A DNA stretch of 64,000 nt from a virus: the IMG/VR virus record IMGVR_UViG_3300050821_001428, positions 64,001-128,000 of that record, one strand, 5' to 3'. Positions 2-61,187 of this stretch are shown one piece after another (within the stretch, counting starts at the first letter, position 1; every line of letters begins with the position of its first letter). The notes beneath the pieces are model-generated. The model was not told where the DNA came from. It made no database searches and saw only the letters and a program-made list of their open reading frames with translations. The position numbers and the translations under genes were made by a program.

Positions 2-1006
2 CGTCCATTCCTGTCAAAGATTTACTGGAAGGAAGCGGATGATAGTCGTTTCATCCTGATTCTCAATCCACTTGAGGAAATTGTACGTTTGAAGTTTCAC
101 CCTTTCGTAGAAACCGACGAGGGTGGTCGTGATATTATTGCCCGTACCGATCCTGGTATTGGTGAGCGCGTAGATCCGATTGAGGATAGTTGGGGTTATA
201 CCCCCCGTGTCACCGATCTTATGATCGCCGTTGAGCTTGAGCCTATTTACGAGACTAAGATCGTCAATAAGCGCGAGCGTCAGTCGGTTACTGGATTTGG
301 TGTAGTAACGAGGACTATCGAACGTCGTATTCGTGACGAAGCCGGTGAGCTTACTGATGATAAGGAAGAGGTTGAGATTCCGATTGTAGGATATATCACT
401 CAGTCACCCTTCAACTTTGGTAATCTACTCAATGCTTATGAGAATAACGAGAACCCAATCCACTTGACTCCTTTCAAGGTGACTCAGGTTGGTGCTGGGT
501 CTGGGAAGACATATAGCTTTGACGGCTATCCGGATGCTACATTCGATTTGACTAATCTATTCGAATACATTGAGAATATCTCATATGTTAGCGATCCAGA
601 TGAGTTGATTGATCTTATTGATGGTCTAGAGCAGGAGGATGCCGGTGTAGTTATCGGTCAGTACCTGCTTGATCTGAAGATTAATGAGCTTGCAGATCCG
701 GAATATTATGACGAGATTTTCAAGGCTATCACTAAGCCTTCTCGTTTTCAAAAGGAAACTAAGTCAGATAGTAAATCTGCCAGACCTAAGCGTTCTTCAC
801 AGCGTGCTACTCCTGTAGCTAAGACTGTTGTGTCGGATGATGAGGGAGATGTAGATGACGCACCGGATATAGATGACACTCCAAGTGTTTCTAATAAACC
901 CGTAGCACGCTCTCGTAAGCCAGGGGAGTCTAAGAGCAGTCCTTCCTCTGCGCGTACAAAGCTTGAAGAACTCAAGGCTCTTCAAGCTATCAAGGCCGCT
1001 GCATAA
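2..1006 (+). CDS. Replication-module protein, possibly ssDNA-binding protein (5'-truncated by window edge)
   Basis: The frame is open from base 2 (RPFLSKIYWKE...) into the listed ORF. It has a low-complexity acidic/basic C-terminal tail, is followed by a strong terminator and sits before RNase H/DnaE/RecA. The SSB call comes from context only. Confidence 0.35.
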   Translation, partial: RPFLSKIYWKEADDSRFILILNPLEEIVRLKFHPFVETDEGGRDIIARTDPGIGERVDPIEDSWGYTPRVTDLMIAVELEPIYETKIVNKRERQSVTGFGVVTRTIERRIRDEAGELTDDKEEVEIPIVGYITQSPFNFGNLLNAYENNENPIHLTPFKVTQVGAGSGKTYSFDGYPDATFDLTNLFEYIENISYVSDPDELIDLIDGLEQEDAGVVIGQYLLDLKINELADPEYYDEIFKAITKPSRFQKETKSDSKSARPKRSSQRATPVAKTVVSDDEGDVDDAPDIDDTPSVSNKPVARSRKPGESKSSPSSARTKLEELKALQAIKAAA

Positions 1007-1025
1007 TCGCTCTAGTTGATATCAT

Positions 1026-1064
1026 ACCTATGATCCACCTGTGATGGGTGGATCATAGGTTTTA
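1026..1064 (+). terminator. Intrinsic terminator
   Basis: ACCTATGATCCACC-tgtgatg-GGTGGATCATAGGT, a 14-bp perfect stem followed by TTT, 20 nt after a stop codon. Confidence 0.8.
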
Positions 1065-1085
1065 TCAGTCATCATTAGAGGTTAA

Positions 1086-1559
1086 ATGTCGCATAAATCA
1101 ACCGAGCAGCCACAAAATTGGGCGCTTTATACCGATGGTTCAAGCGACTCAAGGGATAAGTCCGGAGGTTGGGCTTGGGTAGCATTCGACGCTTATCAGG
1201 GAGAGATGTCTGATAGTGGCGGAATAATGGGTACTACCAATAATCGTATGGAAATGACAGCCTGGATTGAGGGTTTACAAGAGTTATTCCTCTTATTTGG
1301 CGCATGTCGTGTTATAGTGTACTCTGACAGTGAATATGTCGGGCTAGGCGCGATGGATCGCGGTCGGCACCGTAATAAAAATAACGATTTGTGGAAACAA
1401 TTAGATCAGATCATTGACAACCATCTTTATGTGGAGTTTAACCACGTTAAGGGACATAAAGATGATGTAGTCAATAATATTGTCGATGTCATGGCGGGGA
1501 ACGCAAGGAAACAATACCGAGATGAGCATAAAGCATATGAACCCAGCCCCATTGCATGA
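1086..1559 (+). CDS. rnhA: Ribonuclease HI
   Basis: Motifs YTDGS, TTNNRMEM, YSDSEY, NNDLWK, HVKGH and N..VD.MA. Confidence 0.93.
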   Translation: MSHKSTEQPQNWALYTDGSSDSRDKSGGWAWVAFDAYQGEMSDSGGIMGTTNNRMEMTAWIEGLQELFLLFGACRVIVYSDSEYVGLGAMDRGRHRNKNNDLWKQLDQIIDNHLYVEFNHVKGHKDDVVNNIVDVMAGNARKQYRDEHKAYEPSPIA

Positions 1560-4500
1560 TCACTCTATGTGGTCGCAGCTTGACGGTTGGTCTACCCCTG
1601 AGGAAATGGCACAAAGAGCCGTCCAGATTGGAGCGTGCGGCTGCGGCATCAGCGACCACGGCAATGTCGCCGGGCACCTAGAGTTCGCAAAGGCTACTCA
1701 TAAATATGATATCAAGCCTGTTTTTGGCGTCGAGCTATATCACGGTCTTAAACCAGTGCATGATAAAGAACGCGATCAGGCACACCTGATCGCCTTTGCA
1801 CAGAATGACGAGGGATTACGTAACCTATGGCGTCTGGTCAACCAGACTGGACGCAATGATCACTTCCACCACGTAGGTCGTGTGTTTTGGGATGACCTAG
1901 AGAAGTATAAAGATGGGATTACATTCACATCCGCATGTGCCCTTGGCTTAGTTCCTCGTGAGATTGTTAAGGGTAACTACGATTCGTTGAATCGTTATCT
2001 AGATATCCTCCGCGACAATTTCTTCATTGAAATCAGCACATATCCTGGTGATGCTGTCTTTAAGGACAAGGATAGCGAGCATGGTATATCTATGCGTACA
2101 TATAATGAAGCTCTGGTTGATATTGCTCATGAGCGCGGTATCCCTATCGTTTATGGAGATGATGGGCACTACTCATCTCCAGACCAATTTGTATTCCATG
2201 ACGCTTACTTAGCGCGACAGACTAATCAATCTGTTTATACACCTATTGAAGATCGCACGATGTATCACCCACCAAACGCGGTAGTGATCAAAGATATAGA
2301 TATGATTTATGAAAATCTTTCGTATCTTCCTGTCGCTGTGATCGATGAGGCTGTCAATAATGCTAATGTTATTATTCAACGCGCATCTGCGCAATTGCCC
2401 GAGATTCGCAGACACCTGCCTGTATACCTTCCGTCCACTTCGCCTTGGGTGACAGAAGAACAGAAGCAGCTATCGCCTGAAGAGCTATTTATTAATCTGG
2501 TAACAGACGGGATTCATGCACGATATGGAGACACGCCTTCGGATGCGGTCTGGGAACGAACCTTCTATGAGGTCGAAACACTAATCCGTGACGGTATTCA
2601 CCATTACTTCCTCATGGGTTGGGATGAGATGAAGATAGCTGATGAATTAGGCATCGAACGTGGCCCTGGGCGTGGTTCAAGCGGCGGGTCTATCGTCGCT
2701 TATGCCCTGAGTATCACTGATGTATGTCCCTTGCACTATGGGCTTATTTTTGAACGTTTCTGGAACTCAGGTCGTGTAGATGGCTTCCCCGATATCGACT
2801 CGGACTTCAGTCGTGCAAGACGTGGCGAGATGATTGAAGCATTACGCAAGCGTTGGGGCAATGATAGAGTCGTTGCTATCGGTACGACTGGTTATCTCAA
2901 GCCTAAGGCCGTTATTGATAAGCTATCTGGTGCCTGCGAAATCACTTATAAAGAAGTCGACGAGCTAAAGGGGATCGTAGGTCGCACAACTAAGATCGAA
3001 ATCCTTGGTCATGAGCAGATCGGTTGGAATCCGGATCTAGAACCCGGCAAGAAATATTATGTTAAGGATGACGTAGGCGAGGATATTATCCAATGGATCA
3101 ATGCCGACCCAGAACGTGCTGATAAGCGTGAATATTTTGTATTAATGTGTGAGGCTACCTGCTCTCGCGTATCGCAGTACGGCGTTCACGCATCTGGCCT
3201 AGTGATTAGCGATGTTGATACCGATTCCGAGCTACCTGCCCAAATTCGCGGTGGTAAGGATGGCGTACCCGCGACGATGTTTACAATGTCTGACGTAGAT
3301 AAACGTATGTTTGTTAAGCTAGATATTCTCGGTTTACGAACCCTTGACGTTCTTGCGTATTGGAAGAATGCCATGAAGGATGGGCATGATATCGATATTC
3401 AATGGTCAGGTCTTGATCGTCAAGACCATCCGGACGATATGTGGAAAATGATCCATCAAGGATTTACCGCCGGTATCTTCCAAGTCGAAGATGGATACGG
3501 GCGTCAGCTATGTAAACGAATGCTACCAAATTCTATTATGGATCTTGCGGTGATTGGTGCTTTAAACCGACCTGGACCGATCCAAGCTGGTATTCCAGAC
3601 AACTATATAGCCAGACGTAATGGCGAGCAAGAGGTTAGTTATCCGCACCCAAGATTTGAAGAGCTAATGGCCAAGCATCTTGATAATACTTATGGATTGT
3701 GGTGTTTCCAAGAGCAGATTATTAACTACTTTAATGAACTTGGTTACACCAAGAGTGAGTCGGATGCTATTCGTAAGATTATGGGTAAGAAAAAGCCAGA
3801 GCAGATGGATGCTGTACGAGATGGCGGAGATGAGTGGGAGGGTCGTGGGTATCTGCATATGGCGGTTGAAGCGGGTATCCCTCTAGATATTGCCGAGCGC
3901 ATCTGGGAAGATCTTGAGGGCTTTGCTGATTACTGTTTCAACCTGTCTCACTCTGTCGTATACGGAGTGATTACGTTCCGTACAGTATTTGCTAAATACT
4001 ATGGTGCTCCTGAATTCTATGCTGCGGTGATTCGCTCGCTTGTACCTTCTTCAGAAGATGGTGATTCTAAGAAAAAGACTTCTAGTGGCGATAAACGTAA
4101 GAAGATGCTTCCTGTTATTGTTCAAGAATGTCGTAGGTTAGGTATCGATATTCAGCCGCCCGATATTAGATACTCTAAGGGGTATACATATGCCGAACAA
4201 GGGTCGGTCTACCTCGGATTTAGTGAGATTAACACCGTTCGTGCTAGCGGTAGCTATATCGTGGAGTTGCGAGATAAACACAATCTAGACATCTCAACAT
4301 TCGAAAATTTCCAAGCATCATTTAATGCTTATAATGATAGTTGGAATGCTTCCAAAAAAGCAGCTATCAAAGCGGGAATCGGTGAGGACTATGCCAGTAT
4401 CCGTTCGCCTAAGCAGAGATTAGGTGCTAAGAAAATTGTAAACCTAGGCCGGGTCGGTGCTTGGAATAACATTGTCGGTATGACGCATTCTATGACAGAA

Positions 4501-7705: not shown

Positions 7706-8089
7706 TTGGAGATGGGACAAAGACTCTGGATCTGTAAAAGACAAGTAGACAAGATCAAATGTGGCCATGTGAACCCACGGCGCTTACAGCTATGTGAGAA
7801 ATGTGGGAAGCGTAGGCCAGCAACGAAGAAACCAGCACATATGGCTGTGCTGTCCGAGGTTACATACGAGCAATGTGTTGAGCGTTGGGGCGAGAAGTGC
7901 GGAATCTGCGGGGTGACTCGTAAACCGGGCGCTAGACGTTTAAATCGTGACCACTCACATATTGATGGAACCCTAAGAGGACTTCTATGTACCCGTTGTA
8001 ACCGCGCCCTACATTCGTATATGGATTTAGAATGGATAGAGAATGCCGCAGCTTACCTGAGACGGGCTACGAAAGATATCGATATTTAA
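7706..8089 (+). CDS. Endonuclease VII-family protein with N-terminal Zn ribbon
   Basis: CGICG...L.RDH.H...RGLLC.RCN; additional N-terminal Cys pairs. Confidence 0.85.
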   Translation: MEMGQRLWICKRQVDKIKCGHVNPRRLQLCEKCGKRRPATKKPAHMAVLSEVTYEQCVERWGEKCGICGVTRKPGARRLNRDHSHIDGTLRGLLCTRCNRALHSYMDLEWIENAAAYLRRATKDIDI

Positions 8090-50548: not shown

Positions 50549-51892
50549 GTGGAGCCATTATCATCCCAACCACCATCCTATATCACCAAGAAGATGCTAC
50601 CGGGAGCGCTACCGGTAAAGAACCAGGCCGCCAAAATGGGAGTTGATCCGAGATCCGCGCAAGTTGGCCTTGCATCGGGTCGTTCGTTGCTACCGCCGTG
50701 GCCCCCCGGGTCGCCGGTGCAGAAGAATAACGTGACCTGGCAATGGGGGGACGAACTATCTGAGATATCTCAGATAGTTACTAATATCAATCAAACCCTT
50801 GAAGAAACCGATAACATGAGTATCAGTGTTGCACAACTAAAGACATATATCAAGACGGATCTAAACGTCTTGATAGTTGGTCCCGCCGGGACAGGTAAGA
50901 CCGCTATGCTTCAGGAAGCATGTGAGGGCCTTGGATTACGAATGAAATACTATCACGCAGCTACTTTGGACCCATTCGCAGACCTTATAGGAATCCCGGT
51001 GCCCGATCAGGAAACAAAGACCGTTGAGTATTATCGCCCACATGACGTGGATAACGCAGAGGTTATTTTCTGCGATGAGCTAAACCGCGCGTCTACGCAG
51101 ACGACCAACGCTATCTTCGAAATGATTCAGTTCCGTTCAATTAACGGTGAGCCTCTACCTAAGCTGCGATGCGTAGTAGCTGCTATGAATCCAGTCGAGG
51201 ATGCATACGATACCGACGAATTAGATATCGCTCTTCTAGACCGGTTCGATGTATATCTAAACGCCCCGGCGCAGGTTCATGCGGAATATTTTATCAAGAA
51301 GTATGGTCGGGATTACGCTAGGGTCGGTATTGAGATTTTCAATGAATATCAGGCTGATTATAATGCCCCGCAGCGTAGTAAGGATAACAAGCCAATAGGC
51401 TACTTTTCCCCACGTCGCTTGGATAAGTTAATGGATATTTTCCAGAAGTTTCCGACACCCCAGACGGTTAGTGTGGTGCTACCTCATAATGTCATCTTAA
51501 ACAATAAGATGATAGCGAATAAATTCAATATTGCTCTTGGTAATCAACCCGCTCCTTCTCCTGAGAAATCCAAGGAAGAAACCCACACAGAATTCTTGGA
51601 TCAATATTACCAGAGCGATATTAGCTATAGACGTAATATCAAGCAAGCACCCAAATTGGTAGAGGCTTATAAGTGGGTAGTAGCTAAGAGAGATCAATCC
51701 ATGGCTGCGAGTATCCGTGATCACCTTGCCGTCGATCTAAATCAGCAGGTTGGTGTTGATAAGATTGTTGGTAACTTTAAACTAATTATTCAGGATTTTG
51801 ACGATAAACAACTGGAGATACTTATGAACAAGTGGAATTATACCAAGATGCGTAAGTTTAGTCAATCCTCTATGAATTGGTCGGGTTGGTAA
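50549..51892 (+). CDS. MoxR-like AAA+ ATPase
   Basis: GPAGTGKT, IFCDELNRA, AAMNP, ALLDRF and SPR motifs. The start may be later, at MSISVAQL. Confidence 0.88.
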   Translation: MEPLSSQPPSYITKKMLPGALPVKNQAAKMGVDPRSAQVGLASGRSLLPPWPPGSPVQKNNVTWQWGDELSEISQIVTNINQTLEETDNMSISVAQLKTYIKTDLNVLIVGPAGTGKTAMLQEACEGLGLRMKYYHAATLDPFADLIGIPVPDQETKTVEYYRPHDVDNAEVIFCDELNRASTQTTNAIFEMIQFRSINGEPLPKLRCVVAAMNPVEDAYDTDELDIALLDRFDVYLNAPAQVHAEYFIKKYGRDYARVGIEIFNEYQADYNAPQRSKDNKPIGYFSPRRLDKLMDIFQKFPTPQTVSVVLPHNVILNNKMIANKFNIALGNQPAPSPEKSKEETHTEFLDQYYQSDISYRRNIKQAPKLVEAYKWVVAKRDQSMAASIRDHLAVDLNQQVGVDKIVGNFKLIIQDFDDKQLEILMNKWNYTKMRKFSQSSMNWSGW

Positions 51893-51902
51893 AGTAAAAA
51901 TC

Positions 51903-53207
51903 ATGTTTGGATCCCCTGAACTTAAAAAGTACAGAGAAGCCATCAAAGAGTTACTATGGATTCACCCAGCGGTTGGATCAGTAGCACGATCAATGGGTGA
52001 ACCTATTTTCACTCATGATGAACCGACGGCGTTTTTAGAGTTAGATGATAATAAAGAAATTCGCTTCAATTTTAATCCAGAATTTATTCTAGATACAGAT
52101 ATAGAAATAGTCTCTGCGGTGATTGCTCATGAGTCGTATCATTTGGTTCTTGATCATTTTCAGGAATTGGTAGACAAGGTAATATTCCCCAATACCAAGA
52201 CTCTAGTAATTGCTCAGGAGATTATCGTAAATGATACTATTGAAAATATCTATCATATGACTCTTCCCGACTTCGTTTATCGAGGTTTGCAAACTCTAGG
52301 CGAGGATTGTTCACAGTACACATCCAAGCAGGTATATGATAAGTTACTTGAAGATCAAGATGAGAATCAAGATCAGAACGGCGGTCAAGGTAAGGACGAG
52401 CACGGATGCGGCGGACTTCATAATAGTGACGGAATATCAGATGAAGATGCTAAAACTGCCAAGGGTATACAGGATGCGTTTAATGATCTCATTGATGATA
52501 TTGCCAAATCAGAGGGTAAAACACCAGATGAGGTAAAAAACGATCTTCTAAATGACCACGGCGGAGGATTTTCAATAGGTAATTTACAGGGAGATCGTGA
52601 TGGTGCGCTTAGCCGCGAGCGGCTAAATTGGAAGCACCTGTTAGCCCAGATCAATCCTAAGATCATGGATTCAGGGTCACCTAAACGTCGTACGGAGAGC
52701 AATTGGATGAAGCCAAATCGTCGTATGGTTGCCATATATCCAAAGGTAATTGTACCTGTATCACAACCAAAGGAGAAATCTTCTGACAACGATAATGGTG
52801 ATATGATTCCTTCCTTCGTAATCGCCTTAGACCTATCAGGTAGTATTCCTCTGACATTAGTCGATACGCTACAAGGGTTTCTAGAAGATATTCCAAGTGA
52901 TCTGATTAATGCTTTCCCTTGCACTTGGAGTAGTCATTTAGTGCCATTTGACCCTGAGACTCGAAAAATCTGTAGACGCGACGGAACGTCTATTAGCAGG
53001 GTATCTCGATATGTCAATGAGGTTAAATCTGAGACAGGGAGAGATCCATACGTCCTTGTAATTACGGATGGTCAAATTTATGGAGATTTTACTAGGCCCG
53101 GAAAGCAATGGTACTGGATGGCTATCAATGCTAACTCTGTAAGTCAATGTCAGAAACATGCAGATAAACCTGAATATGTGTATAATATTGAGGATTTCAC
53201 AAATTAA
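51903..53207 (+). CDS. HExxH metallopeptidase-like plus VWA domain protein (DUF2201-like)
   Basis: FNPEF, AHESYH, W...L....W.KPNRR, MIDAS DLSGS, GT, VITDG. Confidence 0.82.
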   Translation: MFGSPELKKYREAIKELLWIHPAVGSVARSMGEPIFTHDEPTAFLELDDNKEIRFNFNPEFILDTDIEIVSAVIAHESYHLVLDHFQELVDKVIFPNTKTLVIAQEIIVNDTIENIYHMTLPDFVYRGLQTLGEDCSQYTSKQVYDKLLEDQDENQDQNGGQGKDEHGCGGLHNSDGISDEDAKTAKGIQDAFNDLIDDIAKSEGKTPDEVKNDLLNDHGGGFSIGNLQGDRDGALSRERLNWKHLLAQINPKIMDSGSPKRRTESNWMKPNRRMVAIYPKVIVPVSQPKEKSSDNDNGDMIPSFVIALDLSGSIPLTLVDTLQGFLEDIPSDLINAFPCTWSSHLVPFDPETRKICRRDGTSISRVSRYVNEVKSETGRDPYVLVITDGQIYGDFTRPGKQWYWMAINANSVSQCQKHADKPEYVYNIEDFTN

Positions 53208-53223
53208 CAAGGAAAACTAATCA

Positions 53224-53400
53224 ATGATGCAAATTCTACCCAATTGGACCGTTACTTATAAGCAAATCGATGGTGGTGAGGAACAATTAATTGTACCAAA
53301 CGGCGATTTAGAAGCAATTGTACGTATCTTTAAATATAGTGGAATAAAATACTTTTTCGTTCATGAGCAGGAGCTAGATAATATTCGGTCTATTGTATGA
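53224..53400 (+). CDS. 58-aa hypothetical protein
   Basis: AAGGA RBS; MMQILPNWTVTYKQ...; ATGA overlap with the HNH gene. Confidence 0.55.
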   Translation: MMQILPNWTVTYKQIDGGEEQLIVPNGDLEAIVRIFKYSGIKYFFVHEQELDNIRSIV

Positions 53401-53708
53401 TGTATAGAAGGAAATTAAATAGTGTAAAGCGTAGAAAAAGACTAGTGACAATAGGTGAGCGTGACGGTTGGATTTGCCAACTGTGTCATGGCGAAGTAGA
53501 CCGTCTAGATAGCGTAAATCATAAAAACAATGTCGGAGAGCATCGTGCTAGTCTGGATCACATCAATCCATTATGCTTAGGTGGTAACGATGATAATAAC
53601 AATGTACGTTTAGCACACCAAAGCTGTAATAATTATATAATCGGTGATAATGTGGAACCTTATCAACCGTTTGATAAAACACCCCTATTTGGTATCGATC
53701 AAGAATGA
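53397..53708 (+). CDS. HNH endonuclease
   Basis: RDGW.CQLC...SLDH..P...GG.....N.RLAH..CN. Confidence 0.88.
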   Translation: MMYRRKLNSVKRRKRLVTIGERDGWICQLCHGEVDRLDSVNHKNNVGEHRASLDHINPLCLGGNDDNNNVRLAHQSCNNYIIGDNVEPYQPFDKTPLFGIDQE

Positions 53709-53761: not shown

Positions 53762-53770
53762 TGCTATAAT
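53762..53770 (+). promoter_or_regulatory. Extended -10 promoter TGcTATAAT, leaderless
   Basis: Perfect consensus; ATG 53777 lies 6 nt downstream. Confidence 0.75.
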
Positions 53771-53776
53771 GAATGA

Positions 53777-55225
53777 ATGCAGTTTTGTGCATATCATCAA
53801 ATAGAGCATCTAGAAGGGGATTTCAACGCCACCCAACTCAAGCGCAAGAATAGTGCTTGGTGTCGCAAGGCTCTAGCTGAAAATAAACGCCTAAAGACCC
53901 ATGGATTAGAGTCCAACTCTAAGGCCAAAGGAAAGGGCGGAAGACCCAATTGGTATACCCTTGAGGATTTAGAGAAGATTCAAAAATGGCTTCAAGAGGG
54001 TAAATCTTATAGCTGGATCGGAAGGCAATATAACCCCGATAGACAAGCTGCGGTTATATCCAAATTGGCGCAAGAACAAGGATGGCAAAGCCAAGACGCC
54101 CTAAAACTTCAGACAAAGTTTGTTGAACCGGAAAGCAAGGTTTGCACCTGGTGTCATGAAGAAAAACCCATTGAAAAGTTTCCTTTAAGATCAGATAGGG
54201 AAGATAATAATGGCATTTCTCGCTATGAAGCAAAATGTCATATTTGTCGTAGATTAGTAGTCCCAGAACGACAAGCGTATAATCGTAATTATCATCAGAT
54301 TAATGCAGATGCTATTCGCCAAAATAAACGCGATTATCGTAAACGTCATCCCGAGACTCATAGGAGAGCGAGTCATGTTAGGCGTGCTACTAAGAATGCC
54401 ACCCGCGTAGAAGCCTACGATGAACGCCAAATATGGGAATCTTATGATGGATTATGCTATGTGTGTCAGAAGTCCGTAGATTTCAATAAGCGTGGACACG
54501 AAGGCGATTCTTTTACATTAGAACATATTGTTCCTATAAAAAAGAAAGGGCCAACTTCATATAATAATTTAGCCGTATCACACAAACGTTGTAATTCTAG
54601 TAAGAAACGTTTGATAGTTCCTGATGTATTCGCTGAGGACAATTATTCGGTAAAAGAAATGATAGATAAATCCGAAGCATATCGTCTATCTTTAGAAAAA
54701 CATTATCTACATCGGAAACGATCATTTAGTTATGTATATGGGTTGTATAGGCATGATCAATTGATGGGATTTGTGGGATTTAGTTCGCCAACTTCGAATC
54801 GTATCTCGAAATCAGTATGCCCTGATGATACGCGCCTAGTCATTGAATTAAGTCGTTTATGGATAGATCCTCAAGCTGCCGTTAATGCTGGATCGTGGCT
54901 AATATCTCGGGCATTAAAAATGCTCCCTCCGTATATTGTAATTTCATATGCAGATTCGGCTATCCAAGATACTAGACATACTAAACCACGCAATCATAAT
55001 GGCCTGGTTTACCAGGCAACTAATTTCTATTTTGCTGGTAAAACCAAACCCTCGCATGAATACGTTGCTAATAATAGTAGATCGGTAACTAAGGATACAC
55101 CTGGTGCTATCAAGCAAGAAGTATCCTCTAAATATCGCTACTGGACTTTGACCGGTAGCAAAAGAGATAAAAAGAATCTTTTCCGATTATGTAATTGGCC
55201 TATACTGGACCCGAAAGATTCCTAA
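53777..55225 (+). CDS. HTH/Zn-finger HNH endonuclease fused to a Mom-family (GNAT-fold) DNA-modification domain
   Basis: HNH: CYVC..TLEHIVP...G.....NL..SH..CN..K. Mom-like: HYLHR, YGLY...L.G...F..P, ELSRLW, SWLISRAL, ISYAD, H.G.VYQATNF, K.RY. Confidence 0.8.
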   Translation: MQFCAYHQIEHLEGDFNATQLKRKNSAWCRKALAENKRLKTHGLESNSKAKGKGGRPNWYTLEDLEKIQKWLQEGKSYSWIGRQYNPDRQAAVISKLAQEQGWQSQDALKLQTKFVEPESKVCTWCHEEKPIEKFPLRSDREDNNGISRYEAKCHICRRLVVPERQAYNRNYHQINADAIRQNKRDYRKRHPETHRRASHVRRATKNATRVEAYDERQIWESYDGLCYVCQKSVDFNKRGHEGDSFTLEHIVPIKKKGPTSYNNLAVSHKRCNSSKKRLIVPDVFAEDNYSVKEMIDKSEAYRLSLEKHYLHRKRSFSYVYGLYRHDQLMGFVGFSSPTSNRISKSVCPDDTRLVIELSRLWIDPQAAVNAGSWLISRALKMLPPYIVISYADSAIQDTRHTKPRNHNGLVYQATNFYFAGKTKPSHEYVANNSRSVTKDTPGAIKQEVSSKYRYWTLTGSKRDKKNLFRLCNWPILDPKDS

Positions 55226-55228
55226 AGA

Positions 55229-55256
55229 AAAAGGGCACCCAATTGGGTGCCCTTTT
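55229..55256. terminator. Bidirectional terminator
   Basis: Perfect 28-bp palindrome AAAAGGGCACCCAATTGGGTGCCCTTTT between convergent genes. Confidence 0.85.
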
Positions 55257-55278: not shown

Positions 55279-56367
55279 TTATAGCTGCCACTGAACAGGA
55301 GCACCTGTGGATAGACCACCGATGTCTAGCTTGCTCGGAGCCGCTGTCGAATCACTCTTTAGAACTCTTGCGATACCACGGGGGTTCAATACAAGCATTC
55401 CGATAAGTTCATCGAGTACCCATCCCTTGTAGAACTGCTCTACAAGGTGATTCTCTTCAACGTCTAGCGAGTACATGACTGGCATAACGCCGACGAACTC
55501 TGGCTCTGCGGTTAGGAAGACCTCGCCCTGAGGAACGATGATCGAACGTTGAATCTGGAACTCACCGAACGATGTGATCTTACCACCTGCAAACACCTCA
55601 TCCTTGAACTTGAAGCCTGTAACATTCAGATCCCATGTGTAAAGGTCACGAATATCAACCGGGTGTGCTAGCACGCGGCGAGCCTCAAGCTGGTTGATTT
55701 CGATCTGCGATACAGCGGAGTAGAAGTCCGATGGCTCTAGTGGGTTACCTGCGCCTAGAAGAACGGTATGCTCATTAGGAGCAACCGATGGACCGGCTGC
55801 GATACCAGAAGCAATACCACCCGTAGGTGCTAGACCAACTGTGCTACCCGACTGCAATGTCGAGCCAAGATTCACAATCGCCTGCTCTAGAAGAAGAATT
55901 AGACGAGCGTCCTCCTGCTTCTGAATTGCCTGACGAGTTTCATCCTGAGCATACTCAACCGCATTTACACGTAGGAAGTAAAGGTCTTCCTTACGAATAC
56001 GTGGGAAGGATGCGATACGGAATAGCTGTGGGAAAGCCTGCTTGCCTTCGAATGGAGTGATCTTGACTTCAGCGTCAGTGCTGTTAAGCACGTAAGCTTG
56101 ACCAAGGTCATCCAGAATATCATAAGGCATAAGTGGGCCACGCTCTAGAGTATCTTCCACAAGGACATTACGTACAATACCCTCATAACGAAGACGGATC
56201 TGGATAGGACCAATCATTCCCTGACCAATTCGACGTAGAGCATTCTGCTTGTCGGCTAGAATAGCTTCCAAACGTGCTGACTTCTGCGTCTTGGAAAGCT
56301 TCGGAGAACCCGATAGCTTCATTTCATAATCTGCGGAACTAACCGCTTGTCTTGTAAATTCTGACAT
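55279..56367 (-). CDS. Major capsid protein (Bxz1/cluster-C-like)
   Basis: MIGPIQ..LRY.GI.RNVL.EDTL...YD.LDDLGQAY...ITPFEGK....LFRIASFP.I.KEDLY matches my recollection of the Bxz1-group MCP. Confidence 0.88.
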   Translation of the reverse strand: MSEFTRQAVSSADYEMKLSGSPKLSKTQKSARLEAILADKQNALRRIGQGMIGPIQIRLRYEGIVRNVLVEDTLERGPLMPYDILDDLGQAYVLNSTDAEVKITPFEGKQAFPQLFRIASFPRIRKEDLYFLRVNAVEYAQDETRQAIQKQEDARLILLLEQAIVNLGSTLQSGSTVGLAPTGGIASGIAAGPSVAPNEHTVLLGAGNPLEPSDFYSAVSQIEINQLEARRVLAHPVDIRDLYTWDLNVTGFKFKDEVFAGGKITSFGEFQIQRSIIVPQGEVFLTAEPEFVGVMPVMYSLDVEENHLVEQFYKGWVLDELIGMLVLNPRGIARVLKSDSTAAPSKLDIGGLSTGAPVQWQL

Positions 56368-57218: not shown

Positions 57219-60200
57219 TTACCTACCGAAAATAGCGGAATCCAATACATAGTCATCCATAGGAGCATTGCTCGCAGCCGTGTGATCATTCGCTACGCGA
57301 GTGAAACCATTAGGTGCTGAGCTAAACTTGCCGAACATAGACGGAACCTTAGTTAGACCAGCGGTGCGGTGCTGTGCAATCTTAGCCAGACCAGCAGTCT
57401 TAACCTTACTTAATGATTCAATCTGTGCTAATACTACAGTTTCATCAGTATTATCGAGAGTAGCAATACGATTGAACTTTGCATCAACCGGGGATAAACC
57501 TAATTCAATTTCTAGTTCTGCTAGCTTGATAGATGAGATACGCACAGAGCCGGTGTGAAGCTTCACGTCAGGCGTAGGTACTCCACCAAACTCCATCTTA
57601 TCCTTGGTGGTAGGATCTTGCTGCTTCAGTACGCCATTTCCGTCAGTACCGCTCCAAGTTGTTGTCGGACCAGAGTTATTGGCGGGAGTAGTCTGATGCT
57701 CAAGTAGATTGACGCGCTTATACGAGTCAGTCGCCACCGAATCAGTGGGCTGAACTCCCTGAACCGCTGAACCTCCCTGGGCAACAGGCTTGTTACCCTG
57801 CTGTTCATTCTGTTCTAACGTGTTATCGTCGTAAGAATAACGAGCTTGTGCATATGCATCTTGTGCCTGCTTGACAGCGGCATAATAAGCATTTGCAGCC
57901 TTTACTCCATCTTCGGTTGCTGGGAACGGGTCGCTGGTCACCGGATCAGTAATACCCTTTGCGGTACCATCCGAATCGCCAAAGGTCTTAGTTGGACCAG
58001 AATCTTCAGTTGTCTTATCGGTATTGAAACCGGAATCATCGCTCTTTGGATCAGCGGTCGTAAGGGTTTCGGTCTTATCAGGCTCGACACCCTCGACACC
58101 CGTACCACCAATACCGGTTACATCAATTTGCTTCTGTGCAGTCGAAGCTGCTTCGTTTGATGCTTCATCGAAACCACCAACACCGACAACATCAATGCGC
58201 TCCTTAGCGGAGGTGCCGTCAGGCGGGGTAGCTCCATCAGCAATCTTGGTATTACTCATAGATTCTCCTAAATGATTATGATTGTGATTGCGTTGTGCAG
58301 TTGCCATTAGACGTTGTGCAGTCAGCATTGCTGAGGTAATAGGCGTTCTCTGATCATTCAGAATAACCTGATTACTTGGTTGATTGGTTACAATAGTATT
58401 AGGCTGCAAAACAGGGTTTTCAACCTTGTTAATTCTTGCAGCGGTCTTTTCTGTTACTAATGGAGTCCAACTCATTCTATTATTTACATTGGCGGTGGGT
58501 TGCTGTTTATTAGGCATTTGTCCGATTGGTGCCTGAGTTTGTGGACCAGCAGCAGTTTCTTCTTGAGTCTTCATCTCGTCACGAATTTGTTGTGCCTTTT
58601 GTAGATCGGGGTTGTCAAAATCCTTAGGACTTTGGACAAACCCACACACATCACAAGTTTCACCTTCCATTTGCGCCCCACAATTATGCACTAAAGCGCC
58701 CTCTACAACATATGTATGATCTACATCAACCTCTAGATTGTAAACATATCCATCATATGGTATTTCTTGAATCGAAGAAATCTTAGAAAGATTATATCCG
58801 CCAAATGCCCATTTGTTTTTGCCATACTTGGTTGAATAATCACAATTTGGATTAACTTTATAAGCATTTTCTACCTGATACGTTATCTTTTTATTCAATG
58901 GGTATGTGGTAGTAATTGAAGGCTTATAACAATTAATACGATTACCATACTCTGCCACTTGTAGAGCTAATGTTCTTGATGTCTGCTTAAGGTTACCCTT
59001 TTTATCATGGCCATCTCCATTTAATACTCCTTCAATAATATATTGAATTTTATTATCAGGTAAGAGCATTAATTCAGCCGGTATGATCTTATTATGAGAA
59101 TGTTTACCAATCCAAGCAGGGAACCACCTAGCCAACACAGTGCTACCTACTACTACCCATATACTATTAGGCTTATTAGGAACGGTGTAGAGCGTAGGAT
59201 GATATCCTAATTCAGTAAATATCCTTATTAGACGATCTTGATATTCTGTTTCCTTACGATGTAAAGCGAAATTAATCTCTCGTTTATTATTGCTACCCTC
59301 GGCTATATACATACCAATAGCCCATAAGAAATCTGGAGTTAATTCAAACTCGGTTGGTCCTAAAGTACGAGATCCAGATTTAATACCGATTTTACCTCGA
59401 TAAATTTGACTTGCTATATGGCGCGAAACACCCGTAAGTTCCCCGATACGTTTCCATCCCAAATGATCTACCTCACGCAACATCTTAATTTGAGGCTTGA
59501 TATCAGAATAATCTACATATTCGTTACCCCTAAATTGCTCCGGTACAGATACAGTTGTGATATCACGAACAATGCTAGGACCAACATGCACCAAATAATT
59601 CTGATTTGTTAAAGACGATGCAGACTGGAAATGTAAATGATGATTTTCTTCAAATGACTGTGATTTGTCGCAGACGCCGGGGGCGCACTTTTGATGATGA
59701 TCACCTGTTTGAGCAAGAGTATAAAATGGGTGATCAGGAGTAGCAATAACAGGTTGAGTAAATAAGCCAGAATCAATTTTGATGGCATTACCCGTAAATT
59801 TATTCTCCATCACATTGAGGACGGGATGGAAATGACCATCTCCGGTTAATACCTTGGTACCCATCTTAATCATCTCAATAGGTTCATACCCATTTTCAGT
59901 GCGTACCAATGTACCGGGTGCAAAGCAAATAGGACAGATATGTTCATCTCTCAATGTGTCGATATCGTCTGGGGCATGTACCTTCATTGACTGTGGAAGC
60001 TCGTTTTCGGAAGTATGTACGTGTGACCAACGAGGGTCATTCTGAGTGACTTGATTAGGAATCGCTTCAGGACCACCATGTAGTTCCTGATCGTAGATAC
60101 CACCGGGAGGGGTTGGACGTGCAGGAGATGGAGAACCAATCGGTAATCCATTTTCATCTACTTCTTCATTCTGCTTCATGAAGTATGGTAGCTGAACGCC

Positions 60201-61187
60201 CTGTTCGTCCAAATGAGGAACACCTTGATTATACTGGCCATAACTCGGATCTTCAAACTCCTGATATGTCCCGTCAATACCTTGTGTATGTGGGGCAAAT
60301 TTGTCACGGTCGTCAGGATGTATGATCCCTGGACCATTCGGATCATATTGACCCTCAGCTACAGGATTATAATAGTTATTATCCCATCTACCACCATCTC
60401 GACCCGAAGCAATAATTTCCTTAGTTAAAGCTGTCTCGTCTGCTGGATTAAAGACACCGGAGATTTCAAAAAATTGAACACCACCAACATTTTCATAACT
60501 CTTCTTTTTGATCTTCTGACCAGAAGCGGTCTTATAATCATGTTCATGACCCTTAAGCTTCACATGTGAGCAGAATTCAGCAGCAGTATGCGCTTTATTG
60601 CCACAATGTGAACATGTAGAGAATTCACAATTACAACCCATAGAGAAACCGTCAATATGACCTAGCTTTACTGCATTAGCAAACTTAGGATAGCTCTTGG
60701 CATCAATCTCTAGCAGTAATTCAATCTCACAAGCAGGTAGATGTGAAGAATCTACTTCTCTAGATGACCAATATGGATCAAGGTCGGCCGTTTTAGCATC
60801 TAAGACACGGAACTTAGAATCAACAATCATACCTCTAGTCTTCTTTGGATCACCGTTATTGTGATCGACAAAGATAGGCTTATTCATAAAGGTAGCAAAG
60901 CCATACTTCTGATTACCGTTAGAAGCTTCTAGTGTGAAACCGTCTGTCGAATGGTGCTTTGCTAGAATGTCAGGAGATCCAGCTAACTCTACCGTAGGCC
61001 AGCCGTCATGATTCTGATTTATGCGCGAACTGATAGAACGGATTCTTACATACAGAAAATCATCGTCTGTACGGAAGTCGTTATATTCCGACATCTTATT
61101 TAGGGAAGCGGTGTAGATGCGATCCTTAGATCCCTTGAGGTCTAAAACGTCGGCAATCTCGGCTGATGCATATTTGGTCAGGCTCAT
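57219..61187 (-). CDS. Capsid maturation protease/scaffold polyprotein containing an intein
   Basis: Protease-like motifs N.N.D, PIFVDHN, G.I.D, FSMGC...CS.CG...C.H, E...V.FFEIS.V..PAD.TA; repetitive acidic C-terminus; upstream of decoration/MCP. Confidence 0.78.
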   Translation of the reverse strand: MSLTKYASAEIADVLDLKGSKDRIYTASLNKMSEYNDFRTDDDFLYVRIRSISSRINQNHDGWPTVELAGSPDILAKHHSTDGFTLEASNGNQKYGFATFMNKPIFVDHNNGDPKKTRGMIVDSKFRVLDAKTADLDPYWSSREVDSSHLPACEIELLLEIDAKSYPKFANAVKLGHIDGFSMGCNCEFSTCSHCGNKAHTAAEFCSHVKLKGHEHDYKTASGQKIKKKSYENVGGVQFFEISGVFNPADETALTKEIIASGRDGGRWDNNYYNPVAEGQYDPNGPGIIHPDDRDKFAPHTQGIDGTYQEFEDPSYGQYNQGVPHLDEQGVQLPYFMKQNEEVDENGLPIGSPSPARPTPPGGIYDQELHGGPEAIPNQVTQNDPRWSHVHTSENELPQSMKVHAPDDIDTLRDEHICPICFAPGTLVRTENGYEPIEMIKMGTKVLTGDGHFHPVLNVMENKFTGNAIKIDSGLFTQPVIATPDHPFYTLAQTGDHHQKCAPGVCDKSQSFEENHHLHFQSASSLTNQNYLVHVGPSIVRDITTVSVPEQFRGNEYVDYSDIKPQIKMLREVDHLGWKRIGELTGVSRHIASQIYRGKIGIKSGSRTLGPTEFELTPDFLWAIGMYIAEGSNNKREINFALHRKETEYQDRLIRIFTELGYHPTLYTVPNKPNSIWVVVGSTVLARWFPAWIGKHSHNKIIPAELMLLPDNKIQYIIEGVLNGDGHDKKGNLKQTSRTLALQVAEYGNRINCYKPSITTTYPLNKKITYQVENAYKVNPNCDYSTKYGKNKWAFGGYNLSKISSIQEIPYDGYVYNLEVDVDHTYVVEGALVHNCGAQMEGETCDVCGFVQSPKDFDNPDLQKAQQIRDEMKTQEETAAGPQTQAPIGQMPNKQQPTANVNNRMSWTPLVTEKTAARINKVENPVLQPNTIVTNQPSNQVILNDQRTPITSAMLTAQRLMATAQRNHNHNHLGESMSNTKIADGATPPDGTSAKERIDVVGVGGFDEASNEAASTAQKQIDVTGIGGTGVEGVEPDKTETLTTADPKSDDSGFNTDKTTEDSGPTKTFGDSDGTAKGITDPVTSDPFPATEDGVKAANAYYAAVKQAQDAYAQARYSYDDNTLEQNEQQGNKPVAQGGSAVQGVQPTDSVATDSYKRVNLLEHQTTPANNSGPTTTWSGTDGNGVLKQQDPTTKDKMEFGGVPTPDVKLHTGSVRISSIKLAELEIELGLSPVDAKFNRIATLDNTDETVVLAQIESLSKVKTAGLAKIAQHRTAGLTKVPSMFGKFSSAPNGFTRVANDHTAASNAPMDDYVLDSAIFGR
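58683..59927 (-). mobile_element. Intein (415 aa) with HTH and LAGLIDADG homing endonuclease
   Basis: Block A CFAPGTLV; block B ATPDHPF; IGMYIAEGS and IEGVLNGDG; blocks F/G VYNLEV..HTYVVEGALVHN/C. Confidence 0.93.

Follow-up and report, generated by a model that had tools for sequence, protein, structure and literature searches.

In the phage genome examined here, an HNH endonuclease and a Mom-like DNA-modifying domain share one reading frame beside the major capsid protein (MCP) gene, and the question is what such a combination does. The first-pass annotation proposed, as its headline, a single-gene 'cut and protect' module and, as its alternative, a homing endonuclease spreading an anti-restriction gene as cargo. 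The analysed stretch, hereafter the window, comprises 64,000 nucleotides of a 144,267 bp genome of a Bxz1-like phage (myovirus). Its MCP shares 54% identity with those of cluster C mycobacteriophages such as Mycobacterium phage Myrna and 72% with a contig in a Solirubrobacter genome; we infer an actinobacterial host.

The fusion gene and its surroundings

The call of a single uninterrupted 482-residue ORF was confirmed: it contains zero internal stops, with a probability of ~2e-14 that such a frame would be open by chance, and has a GC3 of 0.32 (genome median 0.37). The 'perfect leaderless promoter' ascribed to it stood only in part. Its -10 element is indeed a perfect extended TGcTATAAT with the ATG at 53777 starting 6 nt downstream, but a good -35 is missing and the site is absent from the list returned by the sigma70 scan. 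About 10 related elements have a similar -10 hexamer at a spacing of 6-8 nt from their start codon, and this recurring layout supports the start codon of the fusion ORF. The transcript is predicted to be leaderless, starting at or beside the ATG, and the promoter looks like one read by the host polymerase. Separate production of the Mom part from an internal ATG at 54659 is unlikely, as there is no ribosome-binding site at a usable spacing, homologs have no Met at this position, and a predicted strand (aa 290-293) would be lost from the modelled fold.

Table 1. Features of the fusion gene and of the adjoining capsid gene (window coordinates)
Feature	Position	Strand	Basis
HNH-Mom fusion ORF (P0001), 482 aa	53777-55225	+	ORF call, Pfam, PHROG
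Extended -10 promoter, TGcTATAAT	53762-53770	+	sequence; layout recurs in related elements
N-terminal C/H zinc-finger-like motif, aa 4-30	53786-53866	+	conserved in P0002-4, P0154-6, P0045
Helix-turn-helix, aa 58-103	53948-54085	+	Pfam HTH_38, model helices, alignment
R-x-D-R zinc finger, aa 123-157	54143-54247	+	family signature
HNH nuclease, aa 227-277	54455-54607	+	PF01844
Mom-family GNAT domain, aa 290-477	54644-55207	+	Pfam, PHROG, structure match, residue mapping
Intrinsic bidirectional terminator hairpin, common to element and MCP gene	55228-55256	both	folding energy; relatives
MCP gene, anchor and probable target gene	55279-56367	-	PHROG 2522
Candidate homing target, MCP codons 314-321	55405-55428	-	statistical inference

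The palindromic terminator had been assigned to the element itself. The hairpin is real and strong on both strands (-21.9 and -22.9 kcal/mol, z -7.1 and -5.3), but nearly all relatives, including those with nothing inserted, have a similar one behind the MCP gene, which indicates that it is the terminator of the capsid gene, borrowed by the element, and not a part of the cassette. Since the region beyond the terminator varies between loci, no clean insertion boundaries can be drawn.

Several neighbouring genes deserve mention in their own right. Directly upstream of the fusion lies a second, small HNH gene (103 aa, 53397-53708, + strand) with a similar A-H-x-x-C-N ending and 28% identity to the HNH part of the fusion. 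A MoxR-like AAA ATPase followed by a DUF2201/vWA-like protein (50549-53207, +) was not seen near the MCP in the other loci searched. On the other side, a 1322-aa head protease/scaffold protein (57219-61187, -) carries an intein-like Hint insertion at aa ~420-835, and its homolog in locus L002 also has Hint insertions. A short EndoVII-like segment occurs elsewhere in the genome (C1, ~71895-72086; window ~7895-8086).

DNA-binding, nuclease and Mom-family domains

The helix-turn-helix (HTH), the CxxC zinc fingers and the complete HNH motif noticed on first reading are all present. The HNH matches PF01844 with an E of 1.1e-8 (35.5 bits against a cut-off of 21.4), and its catalytic and zinc residues are in place (C227, C230, H250, N264, H269, C272, N273); in the family alignment N264 and N273 are invariant and H250 nearly so. 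Support for the HTH is a weak HTH_38 match (E 0.056) together with AlphaFold2 helices at 62-73, 78-84 and 91-101; it is an optional module, missing from P0154, P0155 and P0156 in the alignment. In the R-x-D-R zinc finger, C123, R138, D140, R141, C154 and C157 are invariant in 14 aligned members, HNH-only forms and forms with another GNAT included, and this finger is likely the DNA-recognition module. The N-terminal C/H motif is a putative metal-binding site. The nuclease is an HNH and not the REase/Vsr-like domain of Hef-like endonucleases; PHROG 559 and 3339 match the Mom part alone. A search for shorter homologs with aa 100-284 gave no matches.

Is this nuclease still active, and is the fusion real? 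The nuclease could be inactive or decaying, leaving a DNA-tethered modifier, or the joined frame could be an artefact of assembly or read-through. Relatives do show decay, with an in-frame stop in L123 and, in L269, an HNH-Mom linker interrupted by TnpB, and their HNH parts are only 29-44% identical to that of the window; for L001, L002 and L004 the N-terminus shares 67-69% identity with the window's protein and the HNH just 29-31%. However, the HNH catalytic and zinc residues are retained here and throughout the family, and P0002 is 47% identical to the window's protein over 99% of its length. Independent full-length fusions argue against misassembly, and we consider this whole explanation very improbable.

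The four motifs first noted in the C-terminal half (HYLHR, ELSRLW, ISYAD and G.VYQATNF, here GLVYQATNF) were all found, and their assignment to a Mom-like domain was borne out by profile and structure. PF25680 matches aa 295-434 with an E of 1.8e-22 (80.5 bits, curated cut-off 27.1), and PHROG 1384 matches aa 287-470 with an E of 1.7e-28. In a Foldseek comparison of the AlphaFold2 model (mean pLDDT 85.5; pTM 0.51, which leaves the orientation of the domains unsure) against the PDB, the best hit was Mu Mom, 8BV8 (E 7.4e-11, TM 0.69 by target), and the next family reached 1e-4. Of seven catalytic residues compared with Mu Mom, whose roles are known from mutagenesis (PMC13219725, bioRxiv 10.1101/861617), six are kept: mapped on 8BV8, H58, Y59, R111, S124, D149 and Y159 of Mu correspond to H309, Y310, R360, S373, D393 and Y412. 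The equivalents of H58, Y59, R111, S124 and Y159 occur in 11/11 fusions and that of D149 in 10/11, with one D-to-E change, the same degree of conservation that 99 stand-alone homologs show. Comparison of the fusions with one another gives saturated synonymous divergence (pS 0.74-0.88) and a pN of 0.26-0.41, which indicates purifying selection on the Mom domain. Both a nuclease and a modifier function are thus far predictions from sequence.

Two features that are essential in Mu Mom differ. Mu R151 has no match, the D+2 position being Ala here and variable in the 99 stand-alone homologs as well; an extra insertion of 7-9 residues after D393 of the YAD motif contains an Arg. The counterpart of the HTH-like insert of Mu (175-209) is ~30 aa of different sequence, with no HTH helices in the model. 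The product and donor of the fused domain may therefore differ from those of Mu Mom, which makes 6-NcmdA using Gly-tRNA; by analogy, the chemistry here would also depend on Gly-tRNA.

These same differences suit a reading in which the GNAT helps the nuclease in some other way, by binding DNA or tRNA, by dimerising, by autoregulation or through acylation confined to a protein or a local site, with no genome-wide anti-restriction marks. Mu Mom is dimeric and binds dsDNA (PMC13219725), so that an HNH fused to it might make double-strand breaks where alone it would only nick; moreover, Hef-like genes present in several copies in Bacillus phage AR9/PBS1 also have Mom-like tails, and more than one copy of a global modifier seems redundant there. 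We nevertheless regard this as rather unlikely, given catalytic residues conserved as in stand-alone homologs, mycobacteriophage genes included, and a Mom-only allele in the same slot. The mycobacteriophage genes in question, annotated 'acetyltransferases' (Ohno789 gp40, DillTech15 gp95), have the same motifs and 42% identity over the Mom domain, but they have no nuclease, lie at another genome position and do not contain the insertion after the YAD motif. The Mom-domain tree did not place the window's protein, and it is this common insertion that groups it with the fusions.

Alleles at the post-MCP slot and a candidate target in the capsid gene

Both further HNH-Mom fusions and relatives with an empty site were found. 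In a search of 1.8 billion representatives, the closest Mom domains belonged mostly to HNH-Mom or EndoVII-Mom fusions. Wherever the context of an HNH-Mom gene was readable, in ten cases (the window, L001, L012, L023, L108, L109, L111, L113, L117 and L269), the gene lies just after the MCP gene, in convergent as well as co-directional orientation; in L117 an HNH remnant intervenes between the two. Occurrence is patchy, most relatives being empty at this slot, and on the starred branches of the MCP tree five changes are forced for six HNH-Mom carriers. Unrelated HNH genes and remnants occupy the slot as well. The homolog search found no full fusion in cultured phages.

The slot also holds partial and alternative combinations. 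A zinc-finger-HNH gene with no fused modifier is present at the same site in L074, apparently intact, and in L123; both genomes are partial, and a Mom gene may lie elsewhere in them. The R-x-D-R zinc finger and HNH are joined to a second GNAT family, PHROG 24928, in L002 and L004, and L110 has a Mom-only allele (91-678), convergent on the MCP gene and nested among fused Mom domains, which probably lost its nuclease. Two apparent stand-alone Mom genes were rejected as independent examples: P0011 is really a fusion truncated where its contig begins, and P0005 is located at the MCP slot. In L269 the TnpB-family element interrupts the HNH-Mom gene within 660-3588.

Two genes further upstream, between the protease and cement genes, sit the two EndoVII-Mom genes; they encode tandem EndoVII domains fused to Mom and run antisense (L002 8624-10147, +; L112 2245-3768, +). 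In L002 a nuclease-GNAT fusion thus stands on either side of the capsid module, an arrangement like that of a HEG-island (PMC10448857). PHROG 24928 is listed as 'unknown function' with >1000 homologs (L002 5715-6197, L004 4385-4870); its model has a GNAT fold with invariant RHY and FRNE motifs, which makes it a candidate second DNA-acylating family. Its assignment to Mom itself was not supported (hhalign probability ~1%; 8bv8 Z 11.8, rmsd 3.0 over 136 aligned residues, a tie with generic GNATs).

If the element homes into empty genomes, a trace might be expected in the MCP gene, and a candidate was found at residue 318 (KGWV-M-DE). In the window codon 318 (55416-55414, -) is CTC (Leu), in most non-carriers ATG (Met); it lies 137 bp before the MCP stop and 191 bp from the stop of the element. 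The residue is non-Met in 7/9 near-clade carriers against 2/38 non-carriers (Fisher p 1.9e-5, kinship ignored), the strongest carrier association of 275 MCP columns, with seven changes on the tree. This test was post hoc, the site having been noticed before testing, and only four independent pairs are available since kin share labels, too few for a sign test to reach significance. The replacement codons differ between carriers (CTC, CTG, TTA). A sliding nucleotide scan, normalised per genome divergence, had its maximum between MCP nt 946 and 958 (max-T p 0.012); a drop in GC3 at the MCP 3' end gave a p of 0.07 and was set aside. Among new metagenome loci, 3/5 with a downstream HNH were non-Met against 1 of ~15 without (p 0.03), L123 (Cys) being the only one of these held-out loci from the R-x-D-R zinc-finger family.

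Further to that, carrier L074 and empty L029 differ synonymously at 6/99 codons through 316 and at 14/18 beyond, a sharp breakpoint, although 8/30 empty-empty comparisons likewise have excess 3' divergence. The MCP of Myrna retains Met at 318. The ATG is also retained in carriers L004 and L113 of the near clade and in the distant L109; the Phe318 found in the distant clade (L108, L111, L269, L081) could mark that clade as such, and the counts do not include it. Loss of the Met318 codon is thus usual in the carriers compared, whether or not they have Mom, and the altered codon and the breakpoint fit free-standing homing with immunity by target change.

Homing, self-protection and known nuclease-Mom fusions

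These alleles bear directly on the cut-and-protect proposal, in which Mom would mark self DNA and the HNH would cut what is unmarked, be it DNA of the host or of competitors in general or just the homing site of a rival genome that lacks the mark. At least 12 diverged proteins retain the fusion, each with both sites intact, and GNAT domains have independently been joined to HNH (twice), EndoVII, T5orf172 and Hef-like nucleases, which suggests functional coupling. Adenine is the base lost in the recoded targets, the carriers that keep the ATG (L004, L109, L113) all have a GNAT, and the fusion is the sole Mom gene in this genome.

On the other hand, a fused modifier does not always accompany the nuclease: HNH-only alleles with the same zinc finger occur at the site (L074, L123), of which that of L074 appears intact. 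The candidate target is changed in most Mom carriers too, which would be needless if the mark protected it, and PADLOC returns weak HNH matches only. Zinc-finger and HTH arms and fidelity to one locus suit a long homing site and not a short restriction site. As HNH-only and HNH-Mom carriers are both recoded, Mom is not required for self-protection, and we consider the cut-and-protect module unlikely.

We instead favour, with slightly better than even confidence, the alternative of the first-pass annotation: a homing endonuclease aimed at the 3' end of the MCP gene, immune by recoding, with an active anti-restriction Mom domain as cargo. It best fits the fixed locus, the patchy occurrence, the HNH-only alleles and the changed candidate target, and the gene occupies, in some genomes only, one intergenic position next to a conserved gene. 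On this view Bxz1-like myoviruses harbour an intronless, free-standing gene for a homing endonuclease, which ends in a Mom-family modifier of intact catalytic residues and would be transcribed from a leaderless promoter of its own. When carrier and non-carrier infect one cell, the R-x-D-R zinc finger, helped by the HTH, would recognise the MCP gene of a non-carrier near KGWV-M-DE and the HNH would nick or cut it; repair templated by the carrier would then copy the MCP 3' end together with the element, the carrier being immune through its recoded target (ATG to a Leu or Cys codon). The Mom domain would acylate adenines of phage DNA, probably from Gly-tRNA like Mu Mom, and guard it against host restriction. 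Such a benefit would maintain selection on the element once the site is filled, and would account for the recruitment of GNAT domains by several nucleases at this operon.

The closest precedents for homing are the free-standing seg and mob endonucleases of T4, of which segD lies antisense beside capsid gene 23; such enzymes cleave at a site hundreds of bases away from the gene that encodes them, and the stretch in between is co-converted (PMC2988022). The element resembles them in being intergenic and optional and in adjoining a conserved essential gene; it also has a candidate cut site hundreds of bp away and a possible co-conversion tract. Unlike them, it has an additional enzyme domain and its own leaderless promoter, its cleavage is a prediction, and its DNA-binding modules precede the HNH, which comes first in mob genes. 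Endonuclease-specific promoters of T4 are middle or late (PMC2988022), and the host-polymerase-like promoter of the fusion gene counts against the homing reading.

Compared with Mu Mom (8BV8, PF25680; Silva et al. 2026, PMC13219725), the fusion shares the GNAT fold and six catalytic-residue equivalents, but adds zinc fingers, HTH and HNH, and differs at R151 and in the insert region. Fusions of Mom to REase-fold endoDNases were described in jumbo phages by Iyer et al. 2021 (PMC7824862), who proposed cut-and-protect for them; both the fusions and the idea are therefore already published for that nuclease fold, and HNH-Mom and homing are both unmentioned in that paper. Proteins of this kind are annotated as Hef-like homing endonucleases in AR9, PA5oct and Campylobacter phages. 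The window's protein has the same layout in one chain, the nuclease N-terminal and the Mom-like GNAT C-terminal, with structural matches to such proteins, and differs in its HNH nuclease and in being single-copy at one fixed locus of a Bxz1-like actinophage lineage. The Hef-like protein of Bacillus phage AR9 (g188; L118 379-2127) ends with Mom-like ELSRF, GSF, YAD and NVY motifs recognised by eye, with zero Pfam Mom match, and AR9/PBS1-like phages have 6-12 related places per genome. In the literature searched we found no description of HNH-Mom, although an earlier mention is possible, and no experimental test of the cut-and-protect prediction for Mom-nuclease fusions.

The two functions could also be combined, in that a homing endonuclease would use its own tRNA-dependent adenine hypermodification as the self/non-self mark at its capsid target and so home without altering an essential codon. 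We hold this to be distinctly unlikely; if true, the GNAT domains that HNH, EndoVII and Hef nucleases have acquired time and again would amount to a general epigenetic immunity of homing genes.

What is new here is the candidate MCP target and the series of alleles at one locus. HNH-only, Mom-only, HNH-Mom and HNH-other-GNAT alleles occur naturally at a single site, alongside a named candidate target (ATG versus Leu allele), and this makes the cut-and-protect question directly testable. Depending on the outcome, selfish homing genes would prove to spread DNA-hypermodification enzymes as a useful cargo, or a mark other than methylation would prove able to confer immunity on a homing nuclease.
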